Shown here: one piece after another, positions 1 through 53,403 of the stretch
How positions within the stretch are numbered: the first letter of the stretch is position 1
Layout of the letters: each line of letters begins with the position of its first letter
Source of the DNA: a virus
Strand: one strand, 5' to 3'
IMG/VR virus record: IMGVR_UViG_3300045988_123324
Coordinates: 1-64,000 of that record
Length of the DNA stretch: 64,000 nucleotides
The notes under the pieces: generated by a model
Database searches by the model: none
Told to the model about the DNA's origin: nothing
The model's input: only the letters and a program-made list of their open reading frames with translations
Program-made: the position numbers and the translations under genes

Positions 1-147
1 AAGAACAATCTTCCCACCTGCTTTTTTATACTTCTTCATTACCTCAATAGCTCTATAGTTCACAGACTCTACATAAGGATATGTTTCTGGTGTAGTATAA
101 GCTACAGTCCCATCAAAGTCTAGTGCTACACTCTTATGTTTAAGCAT
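1..147 (-). CDS. HAD-superfamily phosphatase/hydrolase, N-terminal fragment (gene continues past the left edge)
   Basis: ATG at 145-147 opens MLKHKSVALDFDGTVAYTTPE...; DFDGT matches HAD motif I (DxDxT); frame still open at nt 1. Confidence 0.5.
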   Translation of the reverse strand, partial: MLKHKSVALDFDGTVAYTTPETYPYVESVNYRAIEVMKKYKKAGGKIVL

Positions 148-259
148 GATAGATCCACGCCCCAATTTCTTCACAAGCCCTGCTGGATAGCTCACCAACA
201 AACACAAAGAACTGTAAAAAACAAATGATAGGCGCACAGATAACCAGCTTAATATTCAT
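140..259 (-). CDS. small hydrophobic protein (39 aa)
   Basis: Below the ORF-track size cut-off. ATG shares a base with the TGA of the upstream gene (TGATG) and its end overlaps the HAD start. Hydrophobic core LVICAPIICFLQFFVFVG. Confidence 0.3.
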   Translation of the reverse strand: MNIKLVICAPIICFLQFFVFVGELSSRACEEIGAWIYHA

Positions 260-576
260 CAGAGCCACCGATTTCTGCTCCTCTCCATTGTCTCTTCATA
301 CCGTCTCTGCAAGACCTTTTCAAACTCCTTGAGAACTCGTGTCTTTGCTTTGTCAAATCGACGATTAAGGTCACGGATAGCAATACGCTTGCCAACTTCA
401 ACGTCAAACACATCAGTTGGATACAGTCTCGCCTTGCCAGAGAAACATACAGTGCTGTTAATCACCTTGTCTACAATTTCATCTCTTTCCCATCTTCCAA
501 GGAGATCGTTTACATCAACATTATCTAGGGTTCTACCCAAGACATCTGCCCAATAACCACGATTGTCCTTATCCAC
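259..576 (-). CDS. hypothetical protein
   Basis: ORF track (GTG start at 576). The frame stays open upstream (577-636) to the TAA of the previous gene, behind GGAGG at 632-636, so the true start may be a non-canonical codon near 625-627. Confidence 0.55.
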   Translation of the reverse strand: MDKDNRGYWADVLGRTLDNVDVNDLLGRWERDEIVDKVINSTVCFSGKARLYPTDVFDVEVGKRIAIRDLNRRFDKAKTRVLKEFEKVLQRRYEETMERSRNRWL

Positions 577-636
577 ATACCGTGCAATAACAACACCTGC
601 ATTAAGATTGACTGTGAATTTCGTAATCCTTCCTCC

Positions 637-819
637 TTAAATTTGCTCCACATTTTCAACATAGTTGCCGCTGTTAGTATAGCACACATCACGTAGACGG
701 TCAACAAAATTATCAATGTCTCCATCCTCTACTTTTGCTTGTGCTTCCCATTCACTGTCTGCTGTGACCGTGACAGCAGCTCTAACTTCTGTAGTTAGTG
801 TAACCTCGTATTTATTCAT
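637..819 (-). CDS. small hypothetical protein, paralogue of 2393-2578
   Basis: ATG with GGAGGAG RBS. Aligns along its full length with the 61-aa ORF on the other side of iscB (MNxYE[IV]T..T.V.A.V.V.A.S..EA...VE..D...FV). Confidence 0.6.
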   Translation of the reverse strand: MNKYEVTLTTEVRAAVTVTADSEWEAQAKVEDGDIDNFVDRLRDVCYTNSGNYVENVEQI

Positions 820-843
820 TAAATCTCCTCCGCAATCTAAAAA

Positions 844-2106
844 TCAATAAGAAACTAATAATGCCTTGCGGCTTTCTAAGTGCTTTAACTTTTTATAGTT
901 GATATTTGGTTTGATTTTCTCACCATTTAGTTTACGAATGTCAAACGATCCACTAGAACGCCTTGCGAAGATAAAACCTTCCTGTCCTAGACACATAACT
1001 CTATCAAAAAGTTGATAGCCGAACACAAATTTTGGTGTCTGGTTCATCTTCCTCGTGCCACCTTTATTGATCTTGCATTTGTGAATTTGACGGTTATGTT
1101 GTCGTTTCGGAACTATCAACAAAGCCTTTTCTAGTCTTTCTGCATCAAGATTCTTTGCTATCACAAAGGCATCACTTATATGTGTCTTGGTGATATTTTT
1201 CTTCTCGCGCCAGTATTTTGTAATGTAGCCATAAATGCTACAAATATTTATGTCTAGGAACATATTGTGAAGCCTTTCTATCAGTGTCTTTCGCATGATT
1301 CCCATAAAGGTAGCGTCGCGAGTAGACCTTCTCTTACGCTTTGTCGTTGGTAGTGCAACAGTCCCAGCATGATACCCTGTATGACAATCTTCACAAAGAG
1401 TTATCAAGTTGTCAGGAGCGTTACCGCCCGTCTTGCGGGTTTCCAGATGGTGAACATGGAGTTTTACCTTCTTCTTATCTGTGCTATGAGCACCGCAACA
1501 CTGGCAGGAATAGCCATCACGGTGTAGAACATACTGTCTCACATTGTAGTGTCCATACATCTCTCCGAGTTGATAATCTTTACCAACTGGAATAGGCTCT
1601 CCTGCTTCCAAAGCCTTGAGTCTCTGTAAGTCAAATTCTGCTGTTTCTATGCAGATAGTTTTAATAGGCAAAAGTTTTGTTATCAACTTAATACCTTGAA
1701 TATGATTCCAGATTTTTACTTCAACAGATGGTGCAAGCCATCCTTTGTGTTTAGAGTGAATCCTATTAAGAAAACGAGCTTGACGATAGCGTGTAGTCCT
1801 ACTTCTACGAGAACGCCGTAACTCTCGTCTTGATGACATCAAATTTACGACATCATTTCGTGGGCGAAGCTCTGCTGCAAATAACTCCTTCTTTTCTGTC
1901 GAAGCTGATAGACCAACGTGTTTAGATCCTGCATCCACACCGAGCGTTATCTCCTGTGTGTACGTTTTGCTTGTACTGACCAACTGTATTGTGAATGGTG
2001 TTCTTTTGACAACCCTTGCCTTATTTGATTTAAGAAGTAGACGAACCTTTGCATGGTTCTCTGTTGGCATTATTGGCTGTCCTTCTTTGCTTATTACATA
2101 AACCAT
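844..2106 (-). CDS. iscB: IscB RNA-guided nuclease (Cas9 ancestor family)
   Basis: 420 aa with ordered hallmarks: PLMP domain (VYVISKEGQPIMPT...RTPFTIQL), RuvC-I (LGVDAGSKHVG), Arg-rich bridge helix (RRELRRSRRSRTTRYRQARFLNR), RuvC-II (ICIETAEFD), HNH (CQCCG..HVHH..NLITLCEDCH), RuvC-III (THISDAFVIA), and a C-terminal beta-rich domain. AAGGAG lies 9 nt upstream of the ATG. Confidence 0.9.
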   Translation of the reverse strand: MVYVISKEGQPIMPTENHAKVRLLLKSNKARVVKRTPFTIQLVSTSKTYTQEITLGVDAGSKHVGLSASTEKKELFAAELRPRNDVVNLMSSRRELRRSRRSRTTRYRQARFLNRIHSKHKGWLAPSVEVKIWNHIQGIKLITKLLPIKTICIETAEFDLQRLKALEAGEPIPVGKDYQLGEMYGHYNVRQYVLHRDGYSCQCCGAHSTDKKKVKLHVHHLETRKTGGNAPDNLITLCEDCHTGYHAGTVALPTTKRKRRSTRDATFMGIMRKTLIERLHNMFLDINICSIYGYITKYWREKKNITKTHISDAFVIAKNLDAERLEKALLIVPKRQHNRQIHKCKINKGGTRKMNQTPKFVFGYQLFDRVMCLGQEGFIFARRSSGSFDIRKLNGEKIKPNINYKKLKHLESRKALLVSY

Positions 2107-2391
2107 ATTATATAACTCCTTGTTTCAGCACCTATCAAAGCAGGTGTTATCTCCTAGTAATCTAGGGTTAGTTGTCCGTAGCCAATGTTATTCCAAGGTT
2201 TTATATGCTTACAGCACTGTTCCTACCTCTCAGAACTGTTTAACTGCAAGCCGCAGAGTTCGGGATTCGGACTCACGTCCCAAAGTGCCTATATATTCTC
2301 AGATAACGTAGTTCTCATGGAACTTAGGCTAATCAGTAAGGGATTGTAAAATCCCACGACTAAAGTCGTTGGTTACTGATCAAACTTAGCC
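2107..2391 (-). ncRNA. putative omega-RNA scaffold for IscB (guide predicted just upstream, ~2392-2407)
   Basis: 285 nt with no credible minus-strand ORF. Nested helices: 2387-2391/2327-2331 and 2373-2380/2332-2339 enclose hairpins 2356-2369 and 2340-2355. Further hairpins at 2310-2324, 2269-2280 (GTGA loop), 2244-2256, 2153-2166 and 2129-2146. Position immediately 5' of iscB fits known omega-RNAs. Confidence 0.7.
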
Positions 2392-2392
2392 A

Positions 2393-2578
2393 TTAAATAA
2401 TCTCCCTTACGTGTTCTACTTCCAAGTCCCAGTTGCTATAGCTGAAATCATATGCTTTATGAACAAAGTCATACACATCACTGTTTTCAACGCGTTCCAT
2501 AGCCTCTTCGGCTGAGTTTGCTTTTACTTTAACACTAGCTTCTACCTGTGTTCTGAATGTAATTTCATAGGTGTTCAT
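2393..2578 (-). CDS. small hypothetical protein, paralogue of 637-819
   Basis: ATG at 2576-2578 behind GAAGGAGG; the track start at 2581 is TTG. Paralogy with the 60-aa ORF downstream of iscB. Confidence 0.6.
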   Translation of the reverse strand: MNTYEITFRTQVEASVKVKANSAEEAMERVENSDVYDFVHKAYDFSYSNWDLEVEHVREII

Positions 2579-2906
2579 CAAATACCTCCTTCATTTTCTT
2601 AAAAGTCTTTTCGTCCAATACAAAATAATTTGTGCCATCTTCTTCAAATTGGAACACAAGGGCTGAATAAGGTATCTGCAAATCCATTCGCTCTCGTTCA
2701 TTTTTCTCAATCCACTCCTTTTTAATAGAGAATGATTCTTTAGGCTTCATGGATGTTTTACACTCAAACCCAAAATCACCTGCAATAACGTCAAGGGCGT
2801 TAAAGTGTGCAGCTCCACTATTACTGGTACACCTACCATCCAACAACTTAGCAACATACTGTTCTTGTTTACTAGAAAAATATCTAGTAGTTCCTTTCTT
2901 AGCCAT
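2565..2906 (-). CDS. PD-(D/E)XK nuclease, Hjc-like Holliday-junction-resolvase fold (putative)
   Basis: 113 aa. Pattern G..QE..VAKLL...SG....DVIAGDFGFECK matches the D..(E)xK core of Hjc/Hje-type resolvases. AAGGAGGG RBS. Confidence 0.5.
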   Translation of the reverse strand: MAKKGTTRYFSSKQEQYVAKLLDGRCTSNSGAAHFNALDVIAGDFGFECKTSMKPKESFSIKKEWIEKNERERMDLQIPYSALVFQFEEDGTNYFVLDEKTFKKMKEVFDEHL

Positions 2907-3357
2907 GAAACCCTCCTTTTACTACTCTTGACATGAAGTCATACAGCGGCTCATTTTCAATAACAACATCTTCTTTTGGATATCTTGCTTTAACTTTGTT
3001 TGTAGGGACAATATATTGATTCTCAAACAAATTATATAAGTCTAGTCTTGCGGCAAAGTAAAAATCTGTTGGGTAAAGAAACCAGTGCTCATTCGTTTTT
3101 CTAAAATCGCTTGCATTTGGTGGTAGGTAAGGTGTTTTCTCAGTAAAATAAACACAAGGATTTTCCTTAAATTCAGCCGAAAACATATATGATTTTAGTT
3201 GATTAAATCCAATAAGCCCTAGGAGACACTTATACAAAGAATCACTGACACAGATTCTAGGAATGTCTCCTTCTTCATCTTTAACAGCACTTTCTGGGAC
3301 TTTTGGCATAAATGTTTTCTTATTACCGACAAACTCTCTTGAGATATGAAACCACAT
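2899..3357 (-). CDS. hypothetical protein
   Basis: ORF track; ATG overlaps the stop of the upstream small ORF (TAATG). Confidence 0.6.
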   Translation of the reverse strand: MWFHISREFVGNKKTFMPKVPESAVKDEEGDIPRICVSDSLYKCLLGLIGFNQLKSYMFSAEFKENPCVYFTEKTPYLPPNASDFRKTNEHWFLYPTDFYFAARLDLYNLFENQYIVPTNKVKARYPKEDVVIENEPLYDFMSRVVKGGFHG

Positions 3358-3464
3358 TAGTCCTCCAACTCACTAGGGCGCAATAGTAGATATACTCCAT
3401 CTTCTACTACATATACCTCAATATATCCATCTTCTCTAATCGGATTATGTGGCACCCAGCACAT
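3357..3464 (-). CDS. small hypothetical protein (35 aa)
   Basis: Fills the otherwise empty 3358-3495 gap: MCWVPHNPIREDGYIEVYVVEDGVYLLLRPSELED. Stop overlaps the next ATG. Below the track size cut-off. Confidence 0.3.
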   Translation of the reverse strand: MCWVPHNPIREDGYIEVYVVEDGVYLLLRPSELED

Positions 3465-3495
3465 CTTTCCATTATACTTCTTGTATTCTTCCTTC

Positions 3496-3990
3496 TCAGT
3501 CCTTATCCGAAAAACGTACATCGAGTGCCTCCTTCAAAGATCTTTTCAAATCTGCTACTGTACCATTGTTATAAATAGTAAAGTCTGGTTCATAGTCATC
3601 AAGTGCGTGCTCTGATATGTCTGACATTTCCGAAACGTCTCGGATAATCCTAATGGTAGTTACATCCCTAAAGTAATCCTTGATGATTTGAATTTCATTT
3701 GGAAACCTACAATCGGTAACAACAGCAATATTAGGCATATCATGTTCAATAGCCTTGGCTACCTTTAACGCCCAGAATCCTTCTTTATAGGCTCTTACAG
3801 TTTGTCCTATGCCTTGTAGTAGCTTTCTTCCACGTTCATCCTTCCTGCCATCCCAACCCATCTCATAGGCAAAGGTTTTAAGTCGGTCAGCAAAGGCGTA
3901 TCTTTCAGCAGTAGGATAAAGTTCTTTGATACACTTGTAGGATTCATCCTTGCCCGCCCCTGCTTTTCCAATCAACAATACTACTTTCAT
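3496..3990 (-). CDS. deoxynucleoside monophosphate kinase (phage T5-type dNMP kinase family)
   Basis: P-loop LIGKAGAGKDE near the N-terminus and the DCRFPNE motif typical of this family. ATGA overlap with the upstream gene. Confidence 0.7.
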   Translation of the reverse strand: MKVVLLIGKAGAGKDESYKCIKELYPTAERYAFADRLKTFAYEMGWDGRKDERGRKLLQGIGQTVRAYKEGFWALKVAKAIEHDMPNIAVVTDCRFPNEIQIIKDYFRDVTTIRIIRDVSEMSDISEHALDDYEPDFTIYNNGTVADLKRSLKEALDVRFSDKD

Positions 3991-4358
3991 TCTTCAACCA
4001 CCTTAAAATGCTCATAGGCGTTAAAATCATTGGGAATACGTAGCTTGATGAGGTTATAAATATCATCTAGCTTCTTTGATAGTTCTTGAACTTCCATTGG
4101 TACTGCAATCATTCTATGTACTGCTACCTTTAAGATGTTTTGAAAACTACTTGCATAAAGAAGATTCTTGTAGCCTAGTGGCTGTTTTTCATTTACCTCT
4201 CTAAGAATCCACTGTAAGCCATCTGTGGCGATAAAAAGATCTGGTGTAAGAGCAATACTGCCTTTAGGATTATTCTTGCCCTTACGTTTAGGATTCTTTG
4301 CTAGATCCTTGATGTAATCATCTGTTGTACTGCTAACAACTTTCTTCTTCCTACCCAT
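3987..4358 (-). CDS. hypothetical basic protein
   Basis: ORF track trimmed to the ATG at 4356-4358 (MGRKKK...), 1 nt after the upstream stop; the track start is TTG. Confidence 0.55.
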   Translation of the reverse strand: MGRKKKVVSSTTDDYIKDLAKNPKRKGKNNPKGSIALTPDLFIATDGLQWILREVNEKQPLGYKNLLYASSFQNILKVAVHRMIAVPMEVQELSKKLDDIYNLIKLRIPNDFNAYEHFKVVEE

Positions 4359-4359
4359 G

Positions 4360-4578
4360 TTATAGCCCCCATACAATAAATGTTACAATCCATGCAGGAA
4401 GTCCAAAATGCCCAACACCAGGAATAAGTGCAAGCAATAAACACTTCCAATAAGCGACATACTCAATACCAGTCCAACACTCAATATTATATTGCCACAT
4501 GAACCCTAGAATTGCAGAAATGATTGCATAAACCCACAAAGGCGAGATGGCAATAATGAAAGAAACGAATTTACTCAT
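4360..4578 (-). CDS. small integral membrane protein
   Basis: Trimmed to the ATG at 4576-4578 behind TAGGAGGA. Two or three hydrophobic helices (FVSFIIAISPLWVYAIISAILGF, LLLALIPGVGHFGLPAWIVTFIVW). Confidence 0.5.
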   Translation of the reverse strand: MSKFVSFIIAISPLWVYAIISAILGFMWQYNIECWTGIEYVAYWKCLLLALIPGVGHFGLPAWIVTFIVWGL

Positions 4579-4612
4579 AAGTCCTCCTAATATAGAAATT
4601 AACCCTATGAAA

Positions 4613-4651
4613 ACAATAGCATAAATAAAGAGCCTTGTCAATAGGCTCTTT
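4613..4651 (-). terminator. hairpin after recA, with an embedded promoter-like TTGACA-17-TATTGT
   Basis: 8-bp stem 4627-4634/4644-4651, followed on the minus strand by TTTATTTAT. The loop carries TTGACA (4636-4641); TATTGT at 4613-4618. Confidence 0.4.
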
Positions 4652-4656
4652 ACAAT

Positions 4657-5781
4657 TTATTTCGTAATAATAGTATTAACTGCTTCCTCTAGCTCCTTAA
4701 ACACATCTTCATGTTCTTCCATGTATTTAATAACATTGGCTAGTCCCTGCCACTTGAGCGCGTTTCCGTTGCTGTCTATTTTTGCGTCCCCATTTTCATC
4801 TGAGATTGAGAACCATGCACCAGCTTTTTGAATAAGTCCTTGTGCAATAGCAAGATTGATTGTGTCATTCTTTCCATCAATACCCTTGGATGGAGTTATG
4901 CTAAAACGCGACATCTTTCTTGACGGATTTCCTGTTTTATTTTTTAAGCACTCAATCATACTGTAATGCCCGTAGAACACGTCTGGATGTGCATTTAGCT
5001 TGTTATATGATTCATCATAGTAGCTATCCCGCTTTAGAAAAAGTCGAATAAAACAGGTGTGCTTCCACATTCTACCACCAGTGCTAATAATTCTGTTGTA
5101 GTTTGACATATCATCCCGCATTTGATTTATACCAATAAAGGTTATATTATACTTTTTAACGATTGGTGACATTTTAGCACAGAATGTGGTAAGAGCGGCT
5201 GCAATTCCACCCATAGTTTTTTCTTCCATTGTTTTGTCCATAGCTTGTTGAGATACTAACATAGGGATAGAGTCAAGGACAACCATGCCAACCCCGCCAC
5301 TATCCATAAGGTCAAGAAGAATTTGAAATAGCTGTTCTGCTGTTTGATTTTCTGGTGCAATATAGATTAGATTATCAATATCTACACCAAGTTTTGTAAG
5401 CCATTCCTCATCAGAACTAAACTCTGAATCCAGAAGAACACAACGCATAACTCCTCGGTCTTTGAGATATTGTAGCCGCTCTTTCTGTTCCTTGTTTGGT
5501 TTTTCCATAGATTCAATTTCTGCAACTTCTTCGTCATACTCTTTTTGAAATTGCTTTTGTGCTTGTCCAATCATTGAATAGCAAAAGCAACTCTTTCCAG
5601 AAGACTCAGCCCCCAAGACCTCCATAATAGTTCTTGGAAGTCCACCATGAAACAAATAGGTAAATGCAGGAGAAACAAAAGGTATATTGCCAAAGTTTTT
5701 CTTCTTTACTGCTGATGTGCCTACAAGATTAAATTTATATTGCTTATTTATGTTTTTAATTACATCATCTAGTTTACTCAA
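4657..5781 (-). CDS. recA: RecA-family recombinase (RecA/UvsX-like)
   Basis: GGLPRTIMEVLGAESSGKS (Walker A, close to RecA GPESSGKT) and Walker B VVLDSIPMLV. TTG start 7 nt after GGAGGA. Confidence 0.85.
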   Translation of the reverse strand: MSKLDDVIKNINKQYKFNLVGTSAVKKKNFGNIPFVSPAFTYLFHGGLPRTIMEVLGAESSGKSCFCYSMIGQAQKQFQKEYDEEVAEIESMEKPNKEQKERLQYLKDRGVMRCVLLDSEFSSDEEWLTKLGVDIDNLIYIAPENQTAEQLFQILLDLMDSGGVGMVVLDSIPMLVSQQAMDKTMEEKTMGGIAAALTTFCAKMSPIVKKYNITFIGINQMRDDMSNYNRIISTGGRMWKHTCFIRLFLKRDSYYDESYNKLNAHPDVFYGHYSMIECLKNKTGNPSRKMSRFSITPSKGIDGKNDTINLAIAQGLIQKAGAWFSISDENGDAKIDSNGNALKWQGLANVIKYMEEHEDVFKELEEAVNTIITK

Positions 5782-5794
5782 ATATATTCCTCCA

Positions 5795-6550
5795 TCAATA
5801 GTTAGTTCCTATGATCTCTTTTACTTTTCCTCTTTTGGTCTTGTCACAATTAACCTGTCTGCCAACTTCAACATAGTGAATGTTATAATCTTTATACAGT
5901 TCTTCTGCATGAATACTGTTAGAGAACATTACCATAACACCATCATTGGTGAGTTTATCTATGAACTCCTTTAGCTCTTGGTGACTGAACTTATTTTTAA
6001 CATAATTAGTGAAGTTATCCACATATGGTGGGTCAATGTAAACAAAATCACCTTCTTTTGGTGTGATTGATTCATAACTCATACATTCAATGTTTACATC
6101 TTGTAGATATTTAGACATTTCTAATATTGCGTCATAATCAATTACTTTACCATTTTCTATCCACGGAACATTAAACTCACCCTTACTGTTTTCTCTATAA
6201 AGTCCATTGAAACATTTCTTATTCAGATAAATAAATGACGCTGCAATAGTAAGAGAATCATTTGTTGTATTAAACAAATCTCTCACTCTATAGTATTCTT
6301 CTTCTGTATTATTAAATGTCTTTATCAGATCAATAACTTCTTGTGGATGTTCTCTTACTTCTTTATACATAGTAATAAGCCTATGGTTTATGTCAGAGAG
6401 GTGTCTCTGCCCCCCCCCTAGGATTGAAAATGCAAGTGCTCCGCTGCCTAGAAATGGTTCGTAGTAATCATTATACTTCTTTGGCATAAGTTCTTTTAGT
6501 TTTGGAACTAGCCGTGACTTACCACCAACCCAATGTACTAATAGTTTCAT
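5795..6550 (-). CDS. dam: DNA adenine methyltransferase (Dam, D12 class N6-A)
   Basis: WVGGKSRL, EPFLGSGALAF (AdoMet motif), DINHRLI, and DPPY near the C-terminal third. Confidence 0.9.
   Translation of the reverse strand: MKLLVHWVGGKSRLVPKLKELMPKKYNDYYEPFLGSGALAFSILGGGQRHLSDINHRLITMYKEVREHPQEVIDLIKTFNNTEEEYYRVRDLFNTTNDSLTIAASFIYLNKKCFNGLYRENSKGEFNVPWIENGKVIDYDAILEMSKYLQDVNIECMSYESITPKEGDFVYIDPPYVDNFTNYVKNKFSHQELKEFIDKLTNDGVMVMFSNSIHAEELYKDYNIHYVEVGRQVNCDKTKRGKVKEIIGTNY
6410..6418 (-). repeat. G9 homopolymer (C9 on plus strand) inside dam
   Basis: Encodes GGG GGG GGG (Gly45-47), followed by CAG. Confidence 0.95.
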
Positions 6551-7385: not shown

Positions 7386-7591
7386 TGTTTCCTCCTTGTC
7401 ATGCGAAAGCAAGATAGAAGTATCCGCATCTCATAGTCCTCAATCACAAGTTGTGTACCGATAAGTTCACAGCCAGCTTTAATATCTTTAATAACAGCTA
7501 GGTCTGCATAGTTAGGCGTATATATTAAGGAATTAAGTATTGCATCACATATATTGATATATCTTTGCTTGTCAGCAATGATGTGCTTCAC
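7382..7591 (-). CDS. hypothetical protein, related to 9521-9808
   Basis: Trimmed to the GTG at 7589-7591, overlapping the upstream stop (GTGA). VKHIIADKQRYINI resembles MIVICEDKRYTIKI. Confidence 0.5.
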   Translation of the reverse strand: MKHIIADKQRYINICDAILNSLIYTPNYADLAVIKDIKAGCELIGTQLVIEDYEMRILLSCFRMTRRKH

Positions 7592-8208
7592 GTTGCATAC
7601 CCCCAAAACGGATTACATTCTTGCAATGTAACATATTCAGCAGTTGTGAGTTCTTTTCCTTGTTCATACTTCTTGAGAATATCATAAAGCCTATTTTGTT
7701 GGTTCTCAATGAACTCAATGGAGTTCTCGATAAGTTTAAGATTCACAGGTTCAGTGCCAACATAATTGCTTTTTGAATACTTCTTAATAAGGTCAACAAT
7801 ATACCCACTAATCGGTGCTCTATGTCCCTTATACTTTTGAAGTGCATCTGTCACCTGTTGAAACATTGAAAAGGATTCACCAGCATCCTTAACATCTTTG
7901 CAGATACGATCAAGAGCATAGTTGCAACAATTCTCAAAAATATCTTTATTTGTAACAATGTGTTTCATTATATTAGCACCATCTTCTACTCTATAACCTG
8001 TGTAGATACGTAATAACTCTTTAGCATTATATGACACTTCTTGTGTAATATAAGCATCACAAACAGTAGCAAACCACTTTTTTCGCGAGTCAATCATTCC
8101 AGTAATGGATTCTGCTTCTGCATCATCTTCTGGTGACATACTAGACAATTCTTCAATTTCTGCCATGATTTTATCAAGCGTTTCAAGACATTTTGTTTCA
8201 AATTCCAT
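7588..8208 (-). CDS. hypothetical protein
   Basis: Trimmed to the ATG at 8206-8208 behind GAAGGAGA. Confidence 0.6.
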   Translation of the reverse strand: MEFETKCLETLDKIMAEIEELSSMSPEDDAEAESITGMIDSRKKWFATVCDAYITQEVSYNAKELLRIYTGYRVEDGANIMKHIVTNKDIFENCCNYALDRICKDVKDAGESFSMFQQVTDALQKYKGHRAPISGYIVDLIKKYSKSNYVGTEPVNLKLIENSIEFIENQQNRLYDILKKYEQGKELTTAEYVTLQECNPFWGYAT

Positions 8209-8210
8209 AA

Positions 8211-8696
8211 TTAAATCTCCTTCTGTGCAATCTGCCACTCTTGCATTTTAGCACTAATGATCTTCTTTACTGCGTCACTAAGACGTTCAATCGCCGCACA
8301 CTTGCCTTTGATAATCTTATATACGTTTCCATACACAAGTTTAACAATAGCTTCTTCTTTAGCCATCTCCTCTGCTCTTGCTGTCTTACTGGCAATCGTA
8401 CCACCTTGGAGGTTCATATAGCTCTCATTGAACTTCTCATCGTATACAAGCTCTGAAATACTTGCCCTAAGAGAAGCTAGTTCTTGCTTACTGATAAAGA
8501 AGTATGCGTATGTAGTGAGCCTAACAAGGATTCTATTCAAGTCCTCAATGGTTAAGTCTCCGCTATCTTCAAGAACGTCCTTAATCTTTTGGATGTATGT
8601 ATCTGCTTCATCAGTGTACTTACTTGCAATCTCCTCAACAATCTTTGATAGATTCTCTGACTGCTCCTCAACTCTTGTTTGGATTTCTGTATTCAT
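8211..8696 (-). CDS. hypothetical protein (helical, acidic N-terminus)
   Basis: ORF track. Confidence 0.6.
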   Translation of the reverse strand: MNTEIQTRVEEQSENLSKIVEEIASKYTDEADTYIQKIKDVLEDSGDLTIEDLNRILVRLTTYAYFFISKQELASLRASISELVYDEKFNESYMNLQGGTIASKTARAEEMAKEEAIVKLVYGNVYKIIKGKCAAIERLSDAVKKIISAKMQEWQIAQKEI

Positions 8697-28170: not shown

Positions 28171-29508
28171 TTACACCCCATAGGTTCTTGTTGTATCTGT
28201 TGTTATATCTCCTGCAAAGCTATCGGAATCATCCTCATTCTGTCGAATACTAATCGCATCATATCCAAATCTTCCACGTCTCATTGAGTGCGAGAATATC
28301 TGACATAGATCCCCCGACCTTGGATAACTCATTTCATACACGCCTGTTGACTGCATATTTAAGCTACAAGCAAAGTATACACCTGCTACTTGTCCTGCCC
28401 CAGCATAGTTATTAAGTATATCTGGATCTACTCTTACTGCCACATATATTGGCATATTTAGTGTTAAGCAGTTCAGTGTATTTATATCTCTTCCCCAATC
28501 AAGATTTCCATTTGACTGCAAGTCCTTATAATGTGGAATCTCACCATTTCCACCGCCTAGCACCCTTACTGGAAGTGACATTGGTTTCCCAGTTACATTA
28601 TCTGTTCCACTACTTGCCCACCTTACTTCTCCACGCTCTTTGTATGGTGCTTCATCAATATCTATTCTTAGGAATGTGTTTGAAATCTGTCCACTACTCA
28701 ATACTGGCAATATACTACCATCTGCTATGGCATGGAATGACGCATAATCCTTTCTTGGATGACCGTCCTTATCAAGAGGTAGTGGATTAGCCGAGTAATC
28801 ACGTTCAATCCTAAAAATATTTCCTGCCTCTTTCATTAGGTTCGGTACAGATGATCCACTGAAAAACATTCCACCTTCCCAAGAATCATATTTATATAGA
28901 TTACCAAACACTAGATGAACGCATCTATAATCATGTCCAACTCTCACATCACCGCCAATATTTTCTGCAACTACCGAAAATACAAGTGTGTCATTTGGCT
29001 TTAACACATTATTGCAATATAGCTTATACTTATTCTTGTTTACTATCTCTGGTGTGTCAGATTTAACAAGTGTCTGCTCCGTATCCTCTCTAGGGATGAC
29101 TGGAATCCACACTGCCTGTACTTCTTTATTTCTGAATTTTGTAGGTACTTGAAACTGATTATACCATCTCTGTTTCTTTGAATACCCCTCTCCTACTGTT
29201 GCACCTATCCCATAAAAGTTCTTGTGCTTATGCTCGTCCTCAATGGTGCTATCATCTATTGCATCCATATCTGCATCATCATTTAGCCCAAAAATATCTG
29301 TACCATTTGCACTTCTTAGATATATAAAATATGTATTAGTTCTATCCATAAATACGAACTTCTTGCCGTCCACTGAATCTCTCTTATATATGTTCGTATC
29401 ATCCTTCAAATCCTCTACTACGGAATACCCTCTTGATTTTATATATTCTACCATCTTGGCAAGAACTTCATTTGGATTTTTCAGATTCTCATAAACTACA
29501 TATGCCAA
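28171..29508 (-). CDS. paralogue-block protein (shared core family)
   Basis: Track ORF starts at 29550 (ATG, 38-nt overlap). The TTG at 29506-29508 behind GGGGGT fits the family N-terminus better. Shares the HLVFGNLYKY..GG and GVY...RRGRFGYDAISIRQNE motifs with its neighbours. Confidence 0.6.
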   Translation of the reverse strand: MAYVVYENLKNPNEVLAKMVEYIKSRGYSVVEDLKDDTNIYKRDSVDGKKFVFMDRTNTYFIYLRSANGTDIFGLNDDADMDAIDDSTIEDEHKHKNFYGIGATVGEGYSKKQRWYNQFQVPTKFRNKEVQAVWIPVIPREDTEQTLVKSDTPEIVNKNKYKLYCNNVLKPNDTLVFSVVAENIGGDVRVGHDYRCVHLVFGNLYKYDSWEGGMFFSGSSVPNLMKEAGNIFRIERDYSANPLPLDKDGHPRKDYASFHAIADGSILPVLSSGQISNTFLRIDIDEAPYKERGEVRWASSGTDNVTGKPMSLPVRVLGGGNGEIPHYKDLQSNGNLDWGRDINTLNCLTLNMPIYVAVRVDPDILNNYAGAGQVAGVYFACSLNMQSTGVYEMSYPRSGDLCQIFSHSMRRGRFGYDAISIRQNEDDSDSFAGDITTDTTRTYGV

Positions 29509-29512
29509 TTTA

Positions 29513-31183
29513 TTACCCCCTAACCCCGACAATGCTTGTAATCTTAACATCGCCGGTATCTGCTATTTTAAGCGTCCGATCTGTTTCTATAGTTACATTA
29601 TACACTAAATTAGCGTCTCCTGTCAAGTTTACTGACAGATTAGCTAAGAACGCATTTTCTAATTCTTCTGATGTTATTATGTGTTTTGTATTCTTATTTG
29701 TTGTGACAATAATTTTATCATATGACAATATTTTATCACTCAACATAATCAAATCCATGTCTATTAATGACAATATTTCCTGCTTTTTATAATACTCAAA
29801 CATTACTATTACTTGATTTTTGTTGAAAAACTTTCCCATTAAAATATACTTAGATACATTATTATTATCTCTCTCAACAATCACATCAAAATTATGCTTC
29901 CCAACACCAGATATTAAACTAACACAATCATTTTCCAGTATTGCGGATAATGTGTTTGTATCAAATGGTTGTCTTGTGACATAATATATTAATGGGAATC
30001 TTGTTGTTGTGTTGTCTAATGATGATAACAATTTATTATCATTTCTATGTCTATTATAATCATCTTCTGCTGAAAAATCTGATGTTGCATCCATCTTTGG
30101 TATACCACCTATAGAATAATACTTCTTACTTACTGGTGGATCATTTACTTTATATGTGCTGTTTGCACTATAAAAATCATCCTGTAACACAAACGATGTA
30201 TCTAACCTATTCTTCAAATACCTTCGTACACATCTTATAACCCCCCGCTTATATGGAACATTATACCATGTTAAATAATTCGTCTGTGTTTTTGCCATGT
30301 AGAAAAAATGAAATCTCTTATCATCTCTCCAATTCTTATCCATAGCCAACACCCTATTTGTTGCAACTAAAATATCATTACTGTCCAGATTTAATATATA
30401 TTTATGTTGGTATATAAACGTTGATGATTCAGTATAGAACTCCCTCTTTGGATTATTATAGAATATAGAAATAAATCCTTTATTCTTAACTATCAAAATA
30501 GAATCGCTACGACGCAATTCTCTGCTAAATATGAAGAATCTATATACAGCTATCATACCATTAAATATCTCTGGTTTATAGTTTGCACCAAACTCAAAAC
30601 ACTTTTCTAACTCTTTTTCATCCGCAACTATTTGTGGTACTGCATCTGATATACTAGCCCCATATTTCTGCTCTTGATACGTTTTTGTCTTATCATACTC
30701 AAATAATATATCATACCACAAATCATACTGCCTATCTCTATGTGAGTTGCATATTTCTATGTAAAGGTATGAGTTGGTTTTCTTGTCATACAGAACAACA
30801 TATTCCTCTATTATTCGATTTAAGACATCAACTATATTTGTGTCATTTCCTATTGCGTCTCCTGTCCTAGCATACTGAGACCTATCTGCCGCCACCATAT
30901 CTATATATGGTTTCTTTTTCGTACATGCTACAAACGTGGTTGAATCTTTTGGTGATGTATCGTCTGACTCTATATATAGTCTATCATCGTCTGGGTCATA
31001 TGGAAATTTAGTCCCACCATTTTTTGTTTTGTCAACCTTCCACTGTTGCGTTTCCTCCACAACTGTTAGTCCAAACTCAATCATGGCATCTTTTATTATT
31101 TTCAGTAACTTCTTTTTAACATCAAGTTCGTTGGAGAAGTCCATTATATTTTGTAGGTCACTGCTTGTGTATTCTATTTTCAT
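29513..31183 (-). CDS. paralogue-block protein (divergent member)
   Basis: ORF track; ATGA overlap with the upstream gene; weak similarity in N-terminal and C-terminal elements. Confidence 0.55.
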   Translation of the reverse strand: MKIEYTSSDLQNIMDFSNELDVKKKLLKIIKDAMIEFGLTVVEETQQWKVDKTKNGGTKFPYDPDDDRLYIESDDTSPKDSTTFVACTKKKPYIDMVAADRSQYARTGDAIGNDTNIVDVLNRIIEEYVVLYDKKTNSYLYIEICNSHRDRQYDLWYDILFEYDKTKTYQEQKYGASISDAVPQIVADEKELEKCFEFGANYKPEIFNGMIAVYRFFIFSRELRRSDSILIVKNKGFISIFYNNPKREFYTESSTFIYQHKYILNLDSNDILVATNRVLAMDKNWRDDKRFHFFYMAKTQTNYLTWYNVPYKRGVIRCVRRYLKNRLDTSFVLQDDFYSANSTYKVNDPPVSKKYYSIGGIPKMDATSDFSAEDDYNRHRNDNKLLSSLDNTTTRFPLIYYVTRQPFDTNTLSAILENDCVSLISGVGKHNFDVIVERDNNNVSKYILMGKFFNKNQVIVMFEYYKKQEILSLIDMDLIMLSDKILSYDKIIVTTNKNTKHIITSEELENAFLANLSVNLTGDANLVYNVTIETDRTLKIADTGDVKITSIVGVRG

Positions 31184-47618: not shown

Positions 47619-49103
47619 TTATGCCTCCGTATTAAGATTCATTATCCATTTCGTGTTGCCAGCTCTGTAAACTTTTTTAGCACCAAGTCTGCCCATAATA
47701 AAATCTTCTTTATTGTTTGCGTTTTCTGTTACTGCCTCTGCATATAAATCTCCATATAATTCTTTCAACAAATGCAACTGACAAGAAGTTCTTTTTAGTT
47801 CCCTGTTATTATAAAACCAGTAATAGTTTTCTGAAACACCACAATTAGAAAATCCTAACTTTTTATATACATCACCACTAAAGAAGTCATTATCAGAATA
47901 ACTTTTTATGCTTTCTGGTTGATGGTCATTGATAAAATGTTTCAATAGTTTTTCAGCCCCACCAACAATAAAATATTTATCGCTAACTACATATCTATGC
48001 AACTCATATTGATTACCACCACTTTTTGCGAACCTTGGAGTCCCAAAAGACATCAAAGAGATCAACTCATTATTATAATATAAACCATAATTTATCTTGC
48101 ATAGTCTATACCACCCCTGCAAGTGATGTTTTTCAATAAACATTTTTGCAACTTGTAAGTCCACTAATCTAACTGAACAGTTTCTTGCAAAAACCCTTTC
48201 TTTTTGTATCAACAACGATCTTATATATGTTTTTATTTTTTCTTGTTTTTCTGACTTCCAGTCCACGTCAAAAATATTCAAAAGTTTAATTCCCATTGAT
48301 AGTGCAACAGAAAATTTATCATAATGATACGTTTTATTCACATTCTTAAATGCTCCGTTTATTGTGGCATGAAATGGGCTTCCATTATACTCAATTCCAA
48401 TTTTTAGCTGTGGGATATAAATATCAATTTCTTTTCCGTTCAAAATTTTTGCCTTTTCAATGTTTTTATCACCAATAATAGAACAGATAAATTCCTTTAT
48501 TTCTTTTTCTTCTTTTGACCCACAAACATGAACAACACTATGTCCACAAGATGTTGTATGTCCTCTCCTCAGATTATTAGCAGTTACTACAACTTCTTTT
48601 CCACAAGAACATTTGCATTTCCACATCGAGTGTAGATTTTTTCTTCCTACAAATTCAACAACTGTAAGCTCCCCATATGTATGCCCAGTTAAATCATTAA
48701 ACCACTCCGTTTTTGTTCTTTCTTTGTTTATACACCCACACGATGTAACCGCACCAGAAGTAAGGTTATATCCCTGAACAATAGTTTTATTCCCACAAGA
48801 ACATATGCAATTCCAATAATCTTTTCTGTTTTTATCAAAATGGCTAAATGAAACAACACTAAGTCTACCAAACGGTTTTTTCCCCAACAGCCTTGTTGTA
48901 TTTCCATGTTCTTCTTTCCGCAAACATCCACAAGACTTTATTCTTCCAGAATTTAGTCTATCTGCTCTTACTTCACACTCATTTCCACAATCACATTTAC
49001 AGTGCCATTTTTTATTTTCGTCATTAAACCACAACGGAACAAGTCTTTCAAATCTTTTCCCTGTCAAGTCAACAAAATTCCACGGACGTTTATTCCCACT
49101 CAT
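47619..49103 (-). CDS. homing-endonuclease-like protein: three Zn-ribbon repeats + restriction-endonuclease-like (Vsr/DUF559-type) core + C-terminal domain
   Basis: Three copies of L.G..FG.L.V......W.C.C.CG......L..G...SCGC. Then EIDIYIPQLKIGIEYNGSPFH (D..[IL]P....IEYNG). Free-standing between polA and the tail genes. ATG at 49101-49103. Confidence 0.5.
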   Translation of the reverse strand: MSGNKRPWNFVDLTGKRFERLVPLWFNDENKKWHCKCDCGNECEVRADRLNSGRIKSCGCLRKEEHGNTTRLLGKKPFGRLSVVSFSHFDKNRKDYWNCICSCGNKTIVQGYNLTSGAVTSCGCINKERTKTEWFNDLTGHTYGELTVVEFVGRKNLHSMWKCKCSCGKEVVVTANNLRRGHTTSCGHSVVHVCGSKEEKEIKEFICSIIGDKNIEKAKILNGKEIDIYIPQLKIGIEYNGSPFHATINGAFKNVNKTYHYDKFSVALSMGIKLLNIFDVDWKSEKQEKIKTYIRSLLIQKERVFARNCSVRLVDLQVAKMFIEKHHLQGWYRLCKINYGLYYNNELISLMSFGTPRFAKSGGNQYELHRYVVSDKYFIVGGAEKLLKHFINDHQPESIKSYSDNDFFSGDVYKKLGFSNCGVSENYYWFYNNRELKRTSCQLHLLKELYGDLYAEAVTENANNKEDFIMGRLGAKKVYRAGNTKWIMNLNTEA

Positions 49104-51354
49104 ATGGTTCTCCACTCCAACATTTTGATACCTCTACATCACATCTTAGTGCTGCGTCTATTCCTACACCACCAGCAAGAAACTCTTTTTTCAAAATAGG
49201 TATTGCTTCTTGTAAATGTTCTTTTGGAACGCTCATTCCACATTCGTCATGTATTGTCAGAAGTATATATACTCCAAGCTCTTTTAATCTTTCATTCCTC
49301 GCAATATTTAGCATAGCCCTCTTTGTAATATATGCCGCTGTTGATTGAACAGGGTAATTATAGCATAATCTTTCTGCCTGTGCAATAAATCCACCATTTT
49401 GTTTTATCAGTATTCCTTTGCGTTCTGCTTCACTGATAATTTCTTTTTTCTCGTCTTGTCCCCAAGCATTTTTCATCTTATTCCAGTATAGATTCCTATA
49501 GTAATCAAACTGCCTATCTGTAAGAATCTTATCTTTTTGTGTTATTTCATACTCAGGAAGATTTAAGTCTGGAAGTCTGCGCCGTCCACCATAGAAGTTT
49601 TCAACGTATCCATGCTTTCTCCCAAATTCTACAACATTTTTTAGATATCTAGCAAGATCTGGAAAAGCAACCATAATAGAATCTTTTATTTCCTGTGCCT
49701 TTTCCTTTGATACGTTTAAATCCTCTGCAATAGCCTTTACTCCCTTACCATAGCAAATTCCAAGACAAATTGCCTTTGCATGCTTCCTGCGCTCTTTACC
49801 CTCTTTGTTTGTTGTCCCGTCTGCATTAAACTCTAAGCAGTCCTCATACTTTTTGTTAAATGCAATAGACGCAACATGGCTATAAATGTCTCTGCCAAAA
49901 TTAAACGATTCTAACATCTTTTTTTCATCTGCCAGTGATGCTACTGCCATCATCTCTTGTTGACTGAAATCTAAAAACACAAACACTCTATCCTCACCTG
50001 CGACAAACATATTTCTTATGTCCTTATTTTTCGCAGGGATCTGCTGGGCGTTGGGATTACTGCTTGAAAAGCGCATCGTATCGGTTCCGCACTGATTGAA
50101 ATTCGGATGAATCTTTCCACGGTGTTCAAGTGCATCTTCTGTGAGTTTATCAATGAAAGAACTTATGAGTTTATCATATTTCTTTACTTCTTCTAGTGCT
50201 GAAAAAATTTCCCTTACTCTTGTTCCTTCATATTTTTTCTGCCCCATTACTGCATTTATGACATGTTTTCCTGTCCCTCTTGGTTCTTTTTCAAATATTA
50301 CACCAGTTTTCATAATATCATAAATCAGTATTTGAAGTTGCTTTGGGCTATTGAAATTTACTGGATATTCAATATCTCCCATGACTTCCATGCGGGCGCG
50401 TATTTCTGATTCTAGCGGTTCTATTGATTTAGCAAATTTATGCTGTGCGTCAACCAACAATTTAGTGTATTTTTCTTTTAGCTTATTTGCTGTACTAAAA
50501 TCGAAATTAATCCCGCGAACCTTCATGTCACATACTAATTTCTGTATTGGCATCTCTACTTCCCAGAACAACTTTGAAATACGCTCAAGTTTATAGTCAC
50601 TACACTCTTTTGTTCCTACAGTGAGATATGGTCTAAAGAACTCTCCTAAGTCTAGGCTCATGTCAGCATCTTTAGCCGCATATGGAAAACCAACTTCAGG
50701 TGGTATATAGTTAAATGGTATGCCATCGAACAATTCAGCGAATTTATCTGCTTTTTTACCACCACTACAATACTTACCATATAGATATTTTAACCCATGC
50801 TGTTCGTTCTCATTAAGGAGATGAGATGCAATTAGTGTATCAAATGTAGCCCACAGCCATATACCAAACTGCACCTTAATCAATACTGTATCAAAGTATG
50901 CGTTGTGCATATATATGTCTGCTCCACTATCTGCAAGTATCTGTAGACCCTCTTTTACTTTTTCTTTACTGATCTGTTTATCCAATAGCATATCTGTTAT
51001 TGGGCTTGTATGTCCTATTGGAATATACATGGCTTTCTGAGACGGGCTTTTCATAGACAGACCAACAATATCACACAATATGTTATCCAGAGAAGTAGTC
51101 TCAGTATCAATAGCAAATACACCGTCTTTTGCAGCTTGTCTACAATAGTCCAACCACCAATCCTCATCTGTAATAAGAAGAAAGTTATTTTTTTCTTCTC
51201 CAAGGTTTTTTTCAACGAGCCTACTGATTGATGCAATCTTTTCTATAAGTGTTCCTTTTTTGAGTTTTATCTTTGGTTTGTGTGTTTCTTGTGTTTTCTT
51301 TAATATGTTATGTATATTCTCAGTTGTCCGACATGGTAACTTGAACAATGCCAT
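49090..51354 (-). CDS. polA: family A DNA polymerase (Pol I-like, with 3'-5' exonuclease domain)
   Basis: Exo I FAIDTETTSL; motif A VFLDFSQQEM; motif B RRKHAKAICLGICYGKG; motif C LLTIHDEC. Confidence 0.9.
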   Translation of the reverse strand: MALFKLPCRTTENIHNILKKTQETHKPKIKLKKGTLIEKIASISRLVEKNLGEEKNNFLLITDEDWWLDYCRQAAKDGVFAIDTETTSLDNILCDIVGLSMKSPSQKAMYIPIGHTSPITDMLLDKQISKEKVKEGLQILADSGADIYMHNAYFDTVLIKVQFGIWLWATFDTLIASHLLNENEQHGLKYLYGKYCSGGKKADKFAELFDGIPFNYIPPEVGFPYAAKDADMSLDLGEFFRPYLTVGTKECSDYKLERISKLFWEVEMPIQKLVCDMKVRGINFDFSTANKLKEKYTKLLVDAQHKFAKSIEPLESEIRARMEVMGDIEYPVNFNSPKQLQILIYDIMKTGVIFEKEPRGTGKHVINAVMGQKKYEGTRVREIFSALEEVKKYDKLISSFIDKLTEDALEHRGKIHPNFNQCGTDTMRFSSSNPNAQQIPAKNKDIRNMFVAGEDRVFVFLDFSQQEMMAVASLADEKKMLESFNFGRDIYSHVASIAFNKKYEDCLEFNADGTTNKEGKERRKHAKAICLGICYGKGVKAIAEDLNVSKEKAQEIKDSIMVAFPDLARYLKNVVEFGRKHGYVENFYGGRRRLPDLNLPEYEITQKDKILTDRQFDYYRNLYWNKMKNAWGQDEKKEIISEAERKGILIKQNGGFIAQAERLCYNYPVQSTAAYITKRAMLNIARNERLKELGVYILLTIHDECGMSVPKEHLQEAIPILKKEFLAGGVGIDAALRCDVEVSKCWSGEPYEWE

Positions 51355-52111: not shown

Positions 52112-52381
52112 TCAAATAGCTCCCTCTACAACATATGGAACAATTTGATATTTTGATGTTATTCCACCAAAAAGTTCCTTTTCCTTTCGATTAAGTTCAC
52201 TAATTCGCACATACGCATCTGCCTCTGTCTCAAACACTTCTGGTTTATTACCAATAGTAACATATTCAACACCATTATCTGTGTCAGAAATAATAGCATA
52301 CATATTTTTCTGCACATAAACTTTCTTTGTCGATATATCAAATATATTCGATGTCTTTTTCTTTCTTGCCAAATTTATCAC
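52112..52381 (-). CDS. hypothetical protein
   Basis: ORF track. Confidence 0.55.
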   Translation of the reverse strand: MINLARKKKTSNIFDISTKKVYVQKNMYAIISDTDNGVEYVTIGNKPEVFETEADAYVRISELNRKEKELFGGITSKYQIVPYVVEGAI

Positions 52382-53403
52382 TCCATTACTGAAATAATGT
52401 ACCTTCCTAGGTCATCTTCAATACAAATAAAATCATCTTCAATATATAGCCTTATATCATTCTCCATGTTTTTCAGAGTACCTAGAACATAGTCCGTCTT
52501 TACAACTGCCACACGGTTTTCCATATTCACTTCTACATCAATACGCTCCTCAGATGTCCCCTGTGTATTCCTAACAACAAGACTTCTGTCCTCAACGCAA
52601 AACTTCACTGTTGGTTCTTCAAATGGATTTCTAAATACAGACTGTCTCTTTATTACATTCAACATATCTTTTTTTGACAGTATTATAGGCTGATTTTCTG
52701 AAAAATCCATCTCTATAAATGGTTTAACCACGTCAATAGGAAAATCATCCCATACCTTGTTGTTAAACTGTATTTCAAAGTTATCACAGTGCGCCCTATA
52801 TTTTCCCATGAGTATATCATTATCTAGTTTTGACAGAGACTCCACAATAAATGGTTTGATTGCACCCGTGGGAAGATTAGGTATTTTTGTCACAGCCAAA
52901 ATCATACTATTTGTAGTTACAAGTAAGCCATTATAGTTATAATACAACTTGAAATCTTCATGGCTGTCTCCATCATAAACAGCAACCTTATTTCTCTTTA
53001 TCGCAAGCTCAAAATCACTAGGCTTATATACAACCTCATTAGACAAATCATCCATAGATAGCGGCAGAACAATATCTGATCCATCCGCTTCTAACTGTAT
53101 CGGTATTTTGTATTTTCCATTCCCTTTAAACTCAATATATTTACCCATGTTCTTTATTTCTACAGTGTCTTTTGTTGTTAGTTTAAGTAGTTTAAGTAGA
53201 ATAGATAAAGAAATTACCGAATTATCAATGTCATTTTCACAATCGACCTTTGCCACAACTGTTGTAAATCCGTCAGTAGAACCAAGTTTCATTATTCCTT
53301 CTTTTGCATATAACTCAACTAACCCAGTAATAGGTTTTATAGGATTATAGGTTATCAGCGAATGTATCATTGTCACCGTGTTCAATAGCTCTTTTGTATT
53401 CAC
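52378..53403 (-). CDS. DNA polymerase sliding clamp (DnaN beta-clamp-like, putative)
   Basis: ~340 aa. The N-terminal pattern KELLNTV.....L......KPITGLVELYAKEGIMKLGSTDG mirrors DnaN (..P.L..v.l......l.l.aTD). Replication-module context. Start uncertain (GTG at 53401-53403 behind GAGGAA). Confidence 0.5.
   Translation of the reverse strand: MNTKELLNTVTMIHSLITYNPIKPITGLVELYAKEGIMKLGSTDGFTTVVAKVDCENDIDNSVISLSILLKLLKLTTKDTVEIKNMGKYIEFKGNGKYKIPIQLEADGSDIVLPLSMDDLSNEVVYKPSDFELAIKRNKVAVYDGDSHEDFKLYYNYNGLLVTTNSMILAVTKIPNLPTGAIKPFIVESLSKLDNDILMGKYRAHCDNFEIQFNNKVWDDFPIDVVKPFIEMDFSENQPIILSKKDMLNVIKRQSVFRNPFEEPTVKFCVEDRSLVVRNTQGTSEERIDVEVNMENRVAVVKTDYVLGTLKNMENDIRLYIEDDFICIEDDLGRYIISVME

Follow-up and report, generated by a model that had tools for sequence, protein, structure and literature searches.

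Among the RNA-guided endonucleases of the IscB family, an ancestor of Cas9, OgeuIscB (Altae-Tran et al. 2021; PDB entries 7UTN, 7XHT and 8CSZ) is a compact protein of 496 aa without a REC lobe, which works with a HEARO-type omega-RNA carrying its guide at the 5' end. The IscB of ISGst5 from Geobacillus stearothermophilus (Meers et al. 2023, PMC10055086) belongs to an element that has no tnpA in cis, whose omega-RNA abuts one end and takes its guide from the flank, and whose nuclease cuts the element-free allele on the sister chromosome; both ends recognised by TnpA are kept, directly flanked by the target-adjacent motif (TAM) TTCAT. Absence of the transposase gene is the rule in this family, tnpA being found near only ~1.5% of iscB genes (PMC10055086), and the persistence of these almost universally TnpA-less genes calls for an explanation: the only IscB role that has been tested, restoring the element after its excision by TnpA, cannot apply where excision is impossible. 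Here, we describe an IscB/omega-RNA locus in a 64,000-nt stretch of viral DNA (positions 1 to 64,000 of IMG/VR record IMGVR_UViG_3300045988_123324; hereafter the window). The family is already known; the locus represents a variant that lacks a transposon end and bears a comparative signature of homing or competition in phages. Comparison of related phage genomes suggests that it encodes an RNA-guided nuclease of a transposase-independent homing or competition type, a reading to which we give about an even chance.

In domain order and catalytic residues the window protein corresponds to OgeuIscB, and it shares with it the compact build without a REC lobe as well as the HEARO-type omega-RNA with a 5' guide. 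It is shorter (420 aa), and its presumed C-terminal TAM-reading domain has diverged, whereas the N-terminal ~350 residues align. With ISGst5, the window element has in common that the omega-RNA abuts one end, that the guide derives from the flank and that tnpA is lacking in cis; cleavage of the element-free allele is proposed here for the window element as well. However, the IscB-distal hairpin is missing from the window element, and it would be aimed at the genome of a rival phage, not at a sister chromosome. Moreover, the element-free allele of the window locus is not a simple 'donor joint', a 26-nt recoded duplicate travelling with the element.

The product of the open reading frame (ORF) at 844-2106 matches Pfam RRXRR (PF14239; 190 bits, residues 2-167) and the NCBIfam equivalog NF040563 guided_IscB, 'RNA-guided endonuclease IscB', the latter with 321.2 bits as compared to a cut-off of 175. 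Its HNH domain (Pfam PF01844, residues 201-247) is inserted in RuvC, which is the feature separating IscB from IsrB. Alignment to chains 7UTN/7XHT places D58, E154, H219/H220, N233, H242/H246 and H309/D312 on the catalytic positions of OgeuIscB. An initial annotation made from the letters alone had called this ORF an IscB on account of its size and of hallmarks in canonical order, and had named loss of the RuvC or HNH catalytic residues as one of the points on which the call could fail; the Pfam and NCBIfam profiles and the OgeuIscB alignment bear the call out, the residues are intact, and the ORF is confirmed on the minus strand. The C-terminal ~100 aa lie outside every profile match and PDB alignment and are kept among the phage copies. 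Eight phage iscB copies, each of exactly 420 codons and free of indels, show a ratio of nonsynonymous to synonymous substitution rates (dN/dS) of 0.03-0.13 with dS up to ~2; that is, iscB of this subfamily is under strong purifying selection.

Upstream of iscB lies an ORF-free stretch of 286 nt (2107..2392), which the initial annotation had noted as a 285-nt structured region. It contains a match to the HEARO covariance model that spans the full model (2380..2167, E = 1e-27) and clears the gathering score by a wide margin (Table 1). RNAalifold analysis of 15 phage copies predicts 53 base pairs, 29 of which are supported by compensatory changes. The first scaffold pair covaries as well (A-U, G-C or U-A), which places the first scaffold base at 2380 and the last guide base at 2381. 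RF02033 omits downstream structural elements of the omega-RNA (Meers et al., PMC10055086), and the 3' extension in Table 1 was read from the sequence. Assuming a guide length of 16 nt, as in characterised IscBs, the guide TTAATGGCTAAGTTTG consists of the stop codon of small gene 1 followed by a 13-nt relic of the start of small gene 2, ATGGCTAAGTTTG ('MAKF'). A promoter scan returned no sigma-70-like site just upstream of the omega-RNA, which may be transcribed by read-through with the surrounding minus-strand operon. Taken together, the 844-2106 product and the omega-RNA almost certainly form an intact IscB/omega-RNA module (window 2396..833).

Table 1. Features of the IscB/omega-RNA locus (window coordinates or IscB residues) and types of element junction in related phages.
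Feature	Position, residues or contigs	Strand	Remarks
iscB	844..2106	minus	420 aa, every catalytic residue present
PLMP-type motif, N-terminal, in IscB	residues 11-14		reads PIMP
RuvC-I of IscB	D58
Arg-rich helix of IscB	residues 93-103		RRELRRSRRSR
RuvC-II of IscB	E154
HNH residues of IscB	H219/H220, N233, H242, H246
RuvC-III of IscB	H309, D312
C-terminal domain of IscB	~100 aa after RuvC-III
Omega-RNA scaffold, HEARO core	2167..2380	minus	Rfam RF02033, 128.4 bits vs gathering score 83
Omega-RNA 3' extension	2107..2166	minus	two short hairpins and iscB ribosome-binding site; read from sequence; kept in close copies
Presumed 16-nt guide TTAATGGCTAAGTTTG	2381..2396	minus	directly 5' of scaffold
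Conserved element tail TTTTTAGATTG	833..843	minus	last sequence common to copies in different contexts; no end hairpin after it
Diverged second copy of left flank	807..832	minus	ribosome-binding site and ATGAATAAATACG; working start of gene 2
Small gene 1	2393..2581	minus	62 aa, paralogue of gene 2; 3' end and stop codon run into guide
Small gene 2	637..819	minus	60 aa, weakly DpnD/PcfM-like (Pfam), 'MNKY-EVTL' allele
Intact TTGAT + AATTTTGTTGACCGTC site inside gene 2	696..716	minus	IStron insertion site in sister phages
Type A junction	window, L060, L072		gene 1, relic ATGGCTAAGTTTG, element, new ribosome-binding site and ATGAATAAATACG, rest of gene 2
Type B junction	L061, protein P0128		first 42 codons of gene 2, element, gene 3
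Type C junction	L066, L067, L071		complete gene 2, element, gene 3
Type D junction	L062, L063		11 codons of another paralogue, element, further paralogue

Relatives of the window phage were gathered via the neighbouring RecA-like gene, small gene 1 and near-identical IscB and gene-2 proteins; one of the contigs (L060) is the window's own. The ancestral order is a 113-aa gene, small gene 1, small gene 2 and gene 3 (121 aa), the two small genes being ~60-aa paralogues with weak DpnD/PcfM similarity, and the element locus is a hypervariable block of such small paralogous genes. Sister phages that are ~90% identical to the window phage lack the element, and others carry ~90%-identical copies at three other junctions (Table 1); absence was recorded for L074, L075, L058, L051, L052 and L059. 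A separate phage group adds two contexts (L064/L070 and L068), with copies that are 86-87% identical. In types A to D the left junction falls exactly at the first scaffold base (|ATCAGTAACC). The type B junction replaces ~60 nt, and type A carries the 26-nt diverged duplicate. Presence, absence and differing junctions among sister phages show that the element is polymorphic; the view that it is fixed, as the initial annotation had put it, is not tenable given these relatives and the remnants in L053 and L073. In the IscB-less L053 (14755-14790), the last ~35 nt of iscB and the tail GTATTATTGGTTTCTTATTGAATTTCAAATTG are retained upstream of gene 3, a deletion scar indicating that the element was once present there. 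In the type-A copy of L073 (1-160), the 3' part of the omega-RNA is joined to the last ~25 codons of iscB, an internal deletion having removed almost the whole iscB ORF.

The comparison with relatives lacking the region, which had been proposed together with the initial annotation, yields an exact empty site in L058. This contig equals the window minus a 1574-nt block, composed of the element (833..2380) and the 26-nt recoded start (807..832), with 2 nt of microhomology at the junction ...ATGGCTAAGTTTG|AGGTTACAC..., where the left flank of the window is joined to its right flank. L058 combines the AKF start with EVTL codons otherwise seen only with the element, which speaks against it as the ancestral empty site and makes a secondary loss, or else a direct insertion target, more likely. 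Further along the block, the start codon of gene 3 (window 622-624, minus strand) reads ACGAAATTC in the window and L060 as compared to ATGAAATTC (MKFTVNL...) in relatives, and the longest window ORF for this gene starts at GTG 576, giving 105 aa versus 121 aa. The gene 3 start closely follows the element in types B and C.

A nested CCCC...GGGG hairpin is typical of IS200/IS605 ends. Such a hairpin (-13 to -17.5 kcal/mol) is located 25-70 nt past the iscB stop codon in L001-L003, the closest relatives outside the window phage group (IscB 71-81% identical). In the window element, the omega-RNA-side hairpin is present and the IscB-distal one is absent: the right end common to copies stops 11-14 nt past the iscB stop codon, only 24 nt separate this stop from the next start codon in the window, and DNA folding shows that the right end folds no better than shuffled sequence (z = -0.5). 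No match to Y1 transposase (PF01797) was obtained with Pfam in nearly all window ORFs below 450 aa; for the ten largest ORFs the scan was with PHROGs alone, and a 459-aa ORF (28171..29550) was covered by neither library. Hence, the element is non-autonomous as far as the scanned ORFs go, and to that extent the initial statement that TnpA is missing from the 64 kb stands. That absence is no peculiarity but the rule for IscB genes; the unusual part is the missing end hairpin. The hairpin-less IscB-distal end and the absence of TnpA together make TnpA-type excision implausible, and since iscB is under purifying selection nonetheless, something besides post-excision rescue must maintain it.

The start of gene 2 matches the guide in every relative without a type-A element, at 13-15 of 16 bases: 15/16 in L058, 14/16 in L074/L075, where one mismatch lies five bases away from the presumed TAM, 14/16 in L066 with both mismatches distal, and 13/16 in L051 (counted by eye). 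No other good match was found within the window. In the carrier, the scaffold takes the place of the native sequence after the relic. The working gene 2 starts with ATGAATAAATACG (MNKY), 1.57 kb farther downstream; this start has 5/16 mismatches to the guide, three of them within the 6 bases next to the putative TAM. The recoded site reads TTAATGAATAAATACG and adjoins AGGTTA. Over nucleotides 4-27 of the gene 2 coding sequence (816..793), the window differs from AKF alleles at 9-11 of 24 positions as compared to 6-11% elsewhere in gene 2 (binomial P = 6e-4 to 9e-8), and the hyper-divergent bases coincide with the protospacer plus adjacent bases. Most of the resulting replacements in the protein are conservative (A to N, F to Y, I to T, F to L), and the NKY allele was seen only directly downstream of the type-A element. 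The 807..832 region forms an imperfect direct repeat with 2381..2409. Target-site duplication and Campbell-type integration of a circle were considered as sources of this 26-29-nt repeat and rejected, as no known IS200/605 or IscB chemistry generates it by either route.

Two phage pairs have an element that exceeds at least one adjacent flank in identity. In the type-A pair of window and L072, identity is 98.5% for the element, 89% for the first 300 nt of the left flank, 66-80% farther left and 93-99% for ~600 nt of the right flank. For L066 and L071 (both type C) the values are 98.1% for the element and ~85-93% for the flanks. Ordinary mosaic recombination could also explain this contrast.

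In the canonical relatives, A(T/A)GA(A) adjoins the element end. The TAM of OgeuIscB is NWRRNA. Read on the other strand, the published TAM of GstIscB, TTCAT (Meers et al., PMC10055086), fits A(T/A)GA(A). In the phages studied here, the bases after the conserved tail differ among six contexts, and no common TAM is found directly at this position. Three candidates were examined: ATGA(A), which fits the canonical relatives and the next start codons; AGG, which fits five right flanks after a 14-nt tail; and NNGNNA, which fits the native neighbours of three guides. All are confounded, and none was accepted as established, because every junction just precedes a ribosome-binding site and start codon. 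Among the IMG/VR loci L001-L050, the right ends mostly show (T)ATGA(A) just after the element, where it is the start codon of the next gene, and the ribosome-binding site ahead of it often lies inside the element end. Phage-borne IscB elements seem to insert between genes, in gene orientation, and to leave the gene that follows them active. Two IscB copies are found on each of several contigs (L005, L009, L034, and L007 with L049).

How might such an element be maintained? In the homing or competition reading, the 5' 16 nt of the omega-RNA, i.e. the relic 'MAKF' start, would direct IscB to related phages in the same cell, at their unrecoded gene-2 start. The carrier would be protected twice, as its relic copy adjoins the scaffold instead of the native neighbouring sequence and its working gene-2 start is recoded. 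Repair of the cut rival genome from the carrier would copy the element along with the recoded start, that is, homing with co-conversion; alternatively, the break may merely lower the yield of the rival (marker exclusion). The module would then be a counterpart of the free-standing homing endonuclease genes of phages, with RNA as the carrier of specificity. The 'intronless homing' genes SegF, SegB and Mob of phage T4 (PMC13565253) resemble the window locus in that the nuclease gene is intergenic, lies in a variable block and is present or absent among relatives and, if the homing reading holds, that the target is in a neighbouring gene of nuclease-less relatives while the site of the carrier is altered, and that flanks are co-converted with recombination breakpoints at the nuclease gene. 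Specificity of the T4-type enzymes resides in protein-DNA contacts, whereas the window nuclease would rely on a 16-nt RNA guide plus TAM and could, unlike them, shift its specificity by rearrangement of the flank. IStrons, which combine a group I intron with TnpB (Zedaveinyte et al., PMC10690162), likewise bring an OMEGA nuclease into a gene-dense genome with a built-in means of sparing the host gene; the window element has no intron, and the gene is saved at the DNA level by a new ribosome-binding site and start codon. A 2026 review (PMC13565253) counts 'non-restorative homing' that targets co-infecting phages or plasmids among the theoretical possibilities and refers to a TnpB element that spread through a plasmid population independently of TnpA; beyond this theoretical category and the plasmid report, we found no experimental report of phage-borne IscB homing in the literature. 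Of the roles that the initial annotation had left side by side, the comparative data appear to favour homing into or cutting of relatives.

Several observations weigh against homing or competition. The L053 scar and the L073 deletion show that the element is dispensable, and the reading does not account for the presence of hairpin-less copies with exact ends at four junctions. Compared between junction types, element (86-90% identical) and backbone (77-92%) have diverged about equally, which points to a mostly vertical history, besides which there may have been occasional transfer or breakpoints at the element. None of the sampled IscB-less relatives has a perfect guide match, reflecting either escape or a guide that is merely passive flank. 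Because any guide derived from the flank will pair with the homologous region of relatives, the match as such carries little weight. More is offered only by the recoding and the identity tracts, and the recoded start could derive from recombination with a diverged paralogue instead of selection for immunity. Finally, AGGTTA or AAGTTA adjoins the sites in rivals that match the guide, as compared to A(T/A)GA(A) in the canonical relatives, and with ATGA, AGG and NNGNNA each fitting part of the data, no single consistent TAM could be derived.

The exact ends shared by copies in at least six contexts resemble transposition. Along with the canonical family and architecture, in which the omega-RNA at one end is followed by iscB, with the hairpin kept within the omega-RNA 5' end and with ~98.5% of iscB genes lacking tnpA, they are compatible with an ordinary non-autonomous IscB insertion sequence of the IS200/IS605 family that is mobilised in trans by a TnpA of the host or another element. 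The guide would then be whatever flank the element landed by, and the nuclease would serve only for 'restorative homing' after excision. However, TnpA requires the IscB-distal hairpin that close relatives possess and the window element lacks, a common TAM does not follow the tail in the six contexts, and junction types A and B, with their duplicated and replaced nucleotides, are not simple insertions. Moreover, an exact degenerate pattern of the omega-RNA subfamily was unmatched in 185,579 representative genomes. We regard mobilisation in trans as unlikely. Strong purifying selection without transposition machinery, an element divergence that tracks the backbone among junction types and guides that vary between lineages could also reflect a domesticated, vertically inherited phage weapon or regulator, whose benefit might be e.g. 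cutting of host DNA, other mobile elements or superinfecting unrelated phages, and whose site next to gene 2 is incidental. Yet the guide is phage sequence, namely the gene-2 start, and not host-like, the recoding and identity tracts point to sister phages, and repeated loss (L053, L058, L073) argues against an important benefit; a 16-mer without TAM is not meaningfully searchable against host genomes. Domestication in this sense appears improbable to us. As for a decaying relic of an old insertion without present activity, the lost end hairpin, the deleted or scarred copies in L073 and L053 and the want of a perfect guide match in any sampled relative would agree with it. Such decay is hard to reconcile with the low dN/dS maintained over dS to ~2, with eight full-length copies retaining their catalytic residues and with omega-RNA pairs kept via compensatory changes, and it is very improbable.

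Gene 2 is also the site of another OMEGA element. In L051 (13502-15281; also in L052 and L059), an IStron is inserted right after TTGAT, at the equivalent of window 711/712. It comprises a group I intron (Rfam RF00028, 75.9 bits as compared to a threshold of 50) and a 368-aa TnpB with OrfB_IS605, Cas12f1-like TNB and HTH matches. The type-B guide ATTTTGTTGACCGCCT (L061 3708-3724) covers the very 16-17 bp that are guide and target of this TnpB (L051 15282-15297; window 711-696), and the IscB junction in L061 lies 17 nt after the TTGAT TAM, approximately where TnpB-type enzymes cut. The overlap may be a coincidence (~1 in 40) or may mean that the IscB junction is connected with a break made by TnpB. 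A further OMEGA nuclease, a 371-aa TnpB (OrfB_IS605 and Cas12f1-like_TNB), is encoded on L060 at 7447-8562, ~1.3-2.5 kb beyond window position 1.

A wider reading would join these observations. According to it, this IscB/omega-RNA subfamily wholly abandoned TnpA transposition for RNA-programmed 'intronless homing' and marker exclusion among phages, in a natural arms race that co-infecting phages wage with RNA-guided nucleases. Rearrangements at the scaffold 5' end would fuse a fragment of the upstream gene to the scaffold and thereby make new guides, as at the four junctions seen, and each would protect the carrier and aim the nuclease at sister phages with the intact gene; the gene copy of the carrier itself is recoded, and a rival lineage would answer with an IStron-TnpB whose guide lies over the same 16-17 bp of gene 2. 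That scaffold-anchored rearrangements create new guides which are kept by selection is speculation, and the joint reading as a whole is tentative, possible but somewhat unlikely. Be that as it may, the locus constitutes a small natural test set, with four junctions, empty sites, scars and a rival TnpB IStron in the same gene, and supplies a specific predicted target together with a recoded immune allele. If homing or competition is true, RNA-guided DNA cutting would have served in virus-against-virus conflict before CRISPR, the persistence of TnpA-less OMEGA nucleases would be explained, and a simple natural route of guide reprogramming would be at hand, in this case for a compact nuclease of 420 aa.

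IscB is not rare in phages. tblastn found homologues in 31 GenBank phage records and at 50 IMG/VR loci (47-81% identity), in all of which nhmmer detected an upstream omega-RNA, and over 7,300 (E < 1e-50) are present in a large protein collection. With IscB common in phages and lack of TnpA usual, the identification alone adds only a member of a known family. Searches for the exact omega-RNA 31-mer in IMG/VR and for a degenerate 30-mer in representative genomes gave no match, and a degenerate junction pattern matched only two loci in IMG/VR, both already known. Among species-representative genomes, the closest IscB homologues (75-80%; genome bins L076-L078) belong to uncultured Veillonellaceae and Selenomonas metagenome-assembled genomes, none reaching 84% or more, which hints at a Negativicutes host for the phage group.

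The window itself is the genome of an uncultured tailed phage, encoding a tape measure, tail proteins and a DNA polymerase, with 72 of 78 ORFs on the minus strand and a GC content of 35.5%. A megablast search with window 1-6000 found nothing among GenBank phages, to which the identity of the window tail protein does not exceed 27%; the phage is without a close cultured relative. A second, protein-only selfish nuclease in the window is a 498-aa HNH/homing endonuclease (47619-49115, minus strand; PHROG 559 and 3339, E ~1e-70) that overlaps the end of the DNA polymerase gene (49090-51354). The RecA-like product of L074 (1-1223) has 718 aa with Hom_end and LAGLIDADG_3 matches, as compared to 374 aa for the window version (4657-5781), and the extra sequence is probably an intein. 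The window also encodes ThyX, dUTPase and dCMP deaminase as well as DNA methyltransferases at 5795-6550, 52378-53424 and 61150-61692 (Dam-like D12, C5 cytosine, N6/N4). Possible modification of the phage DNA could influence its cleavage by IscB or TnpB.

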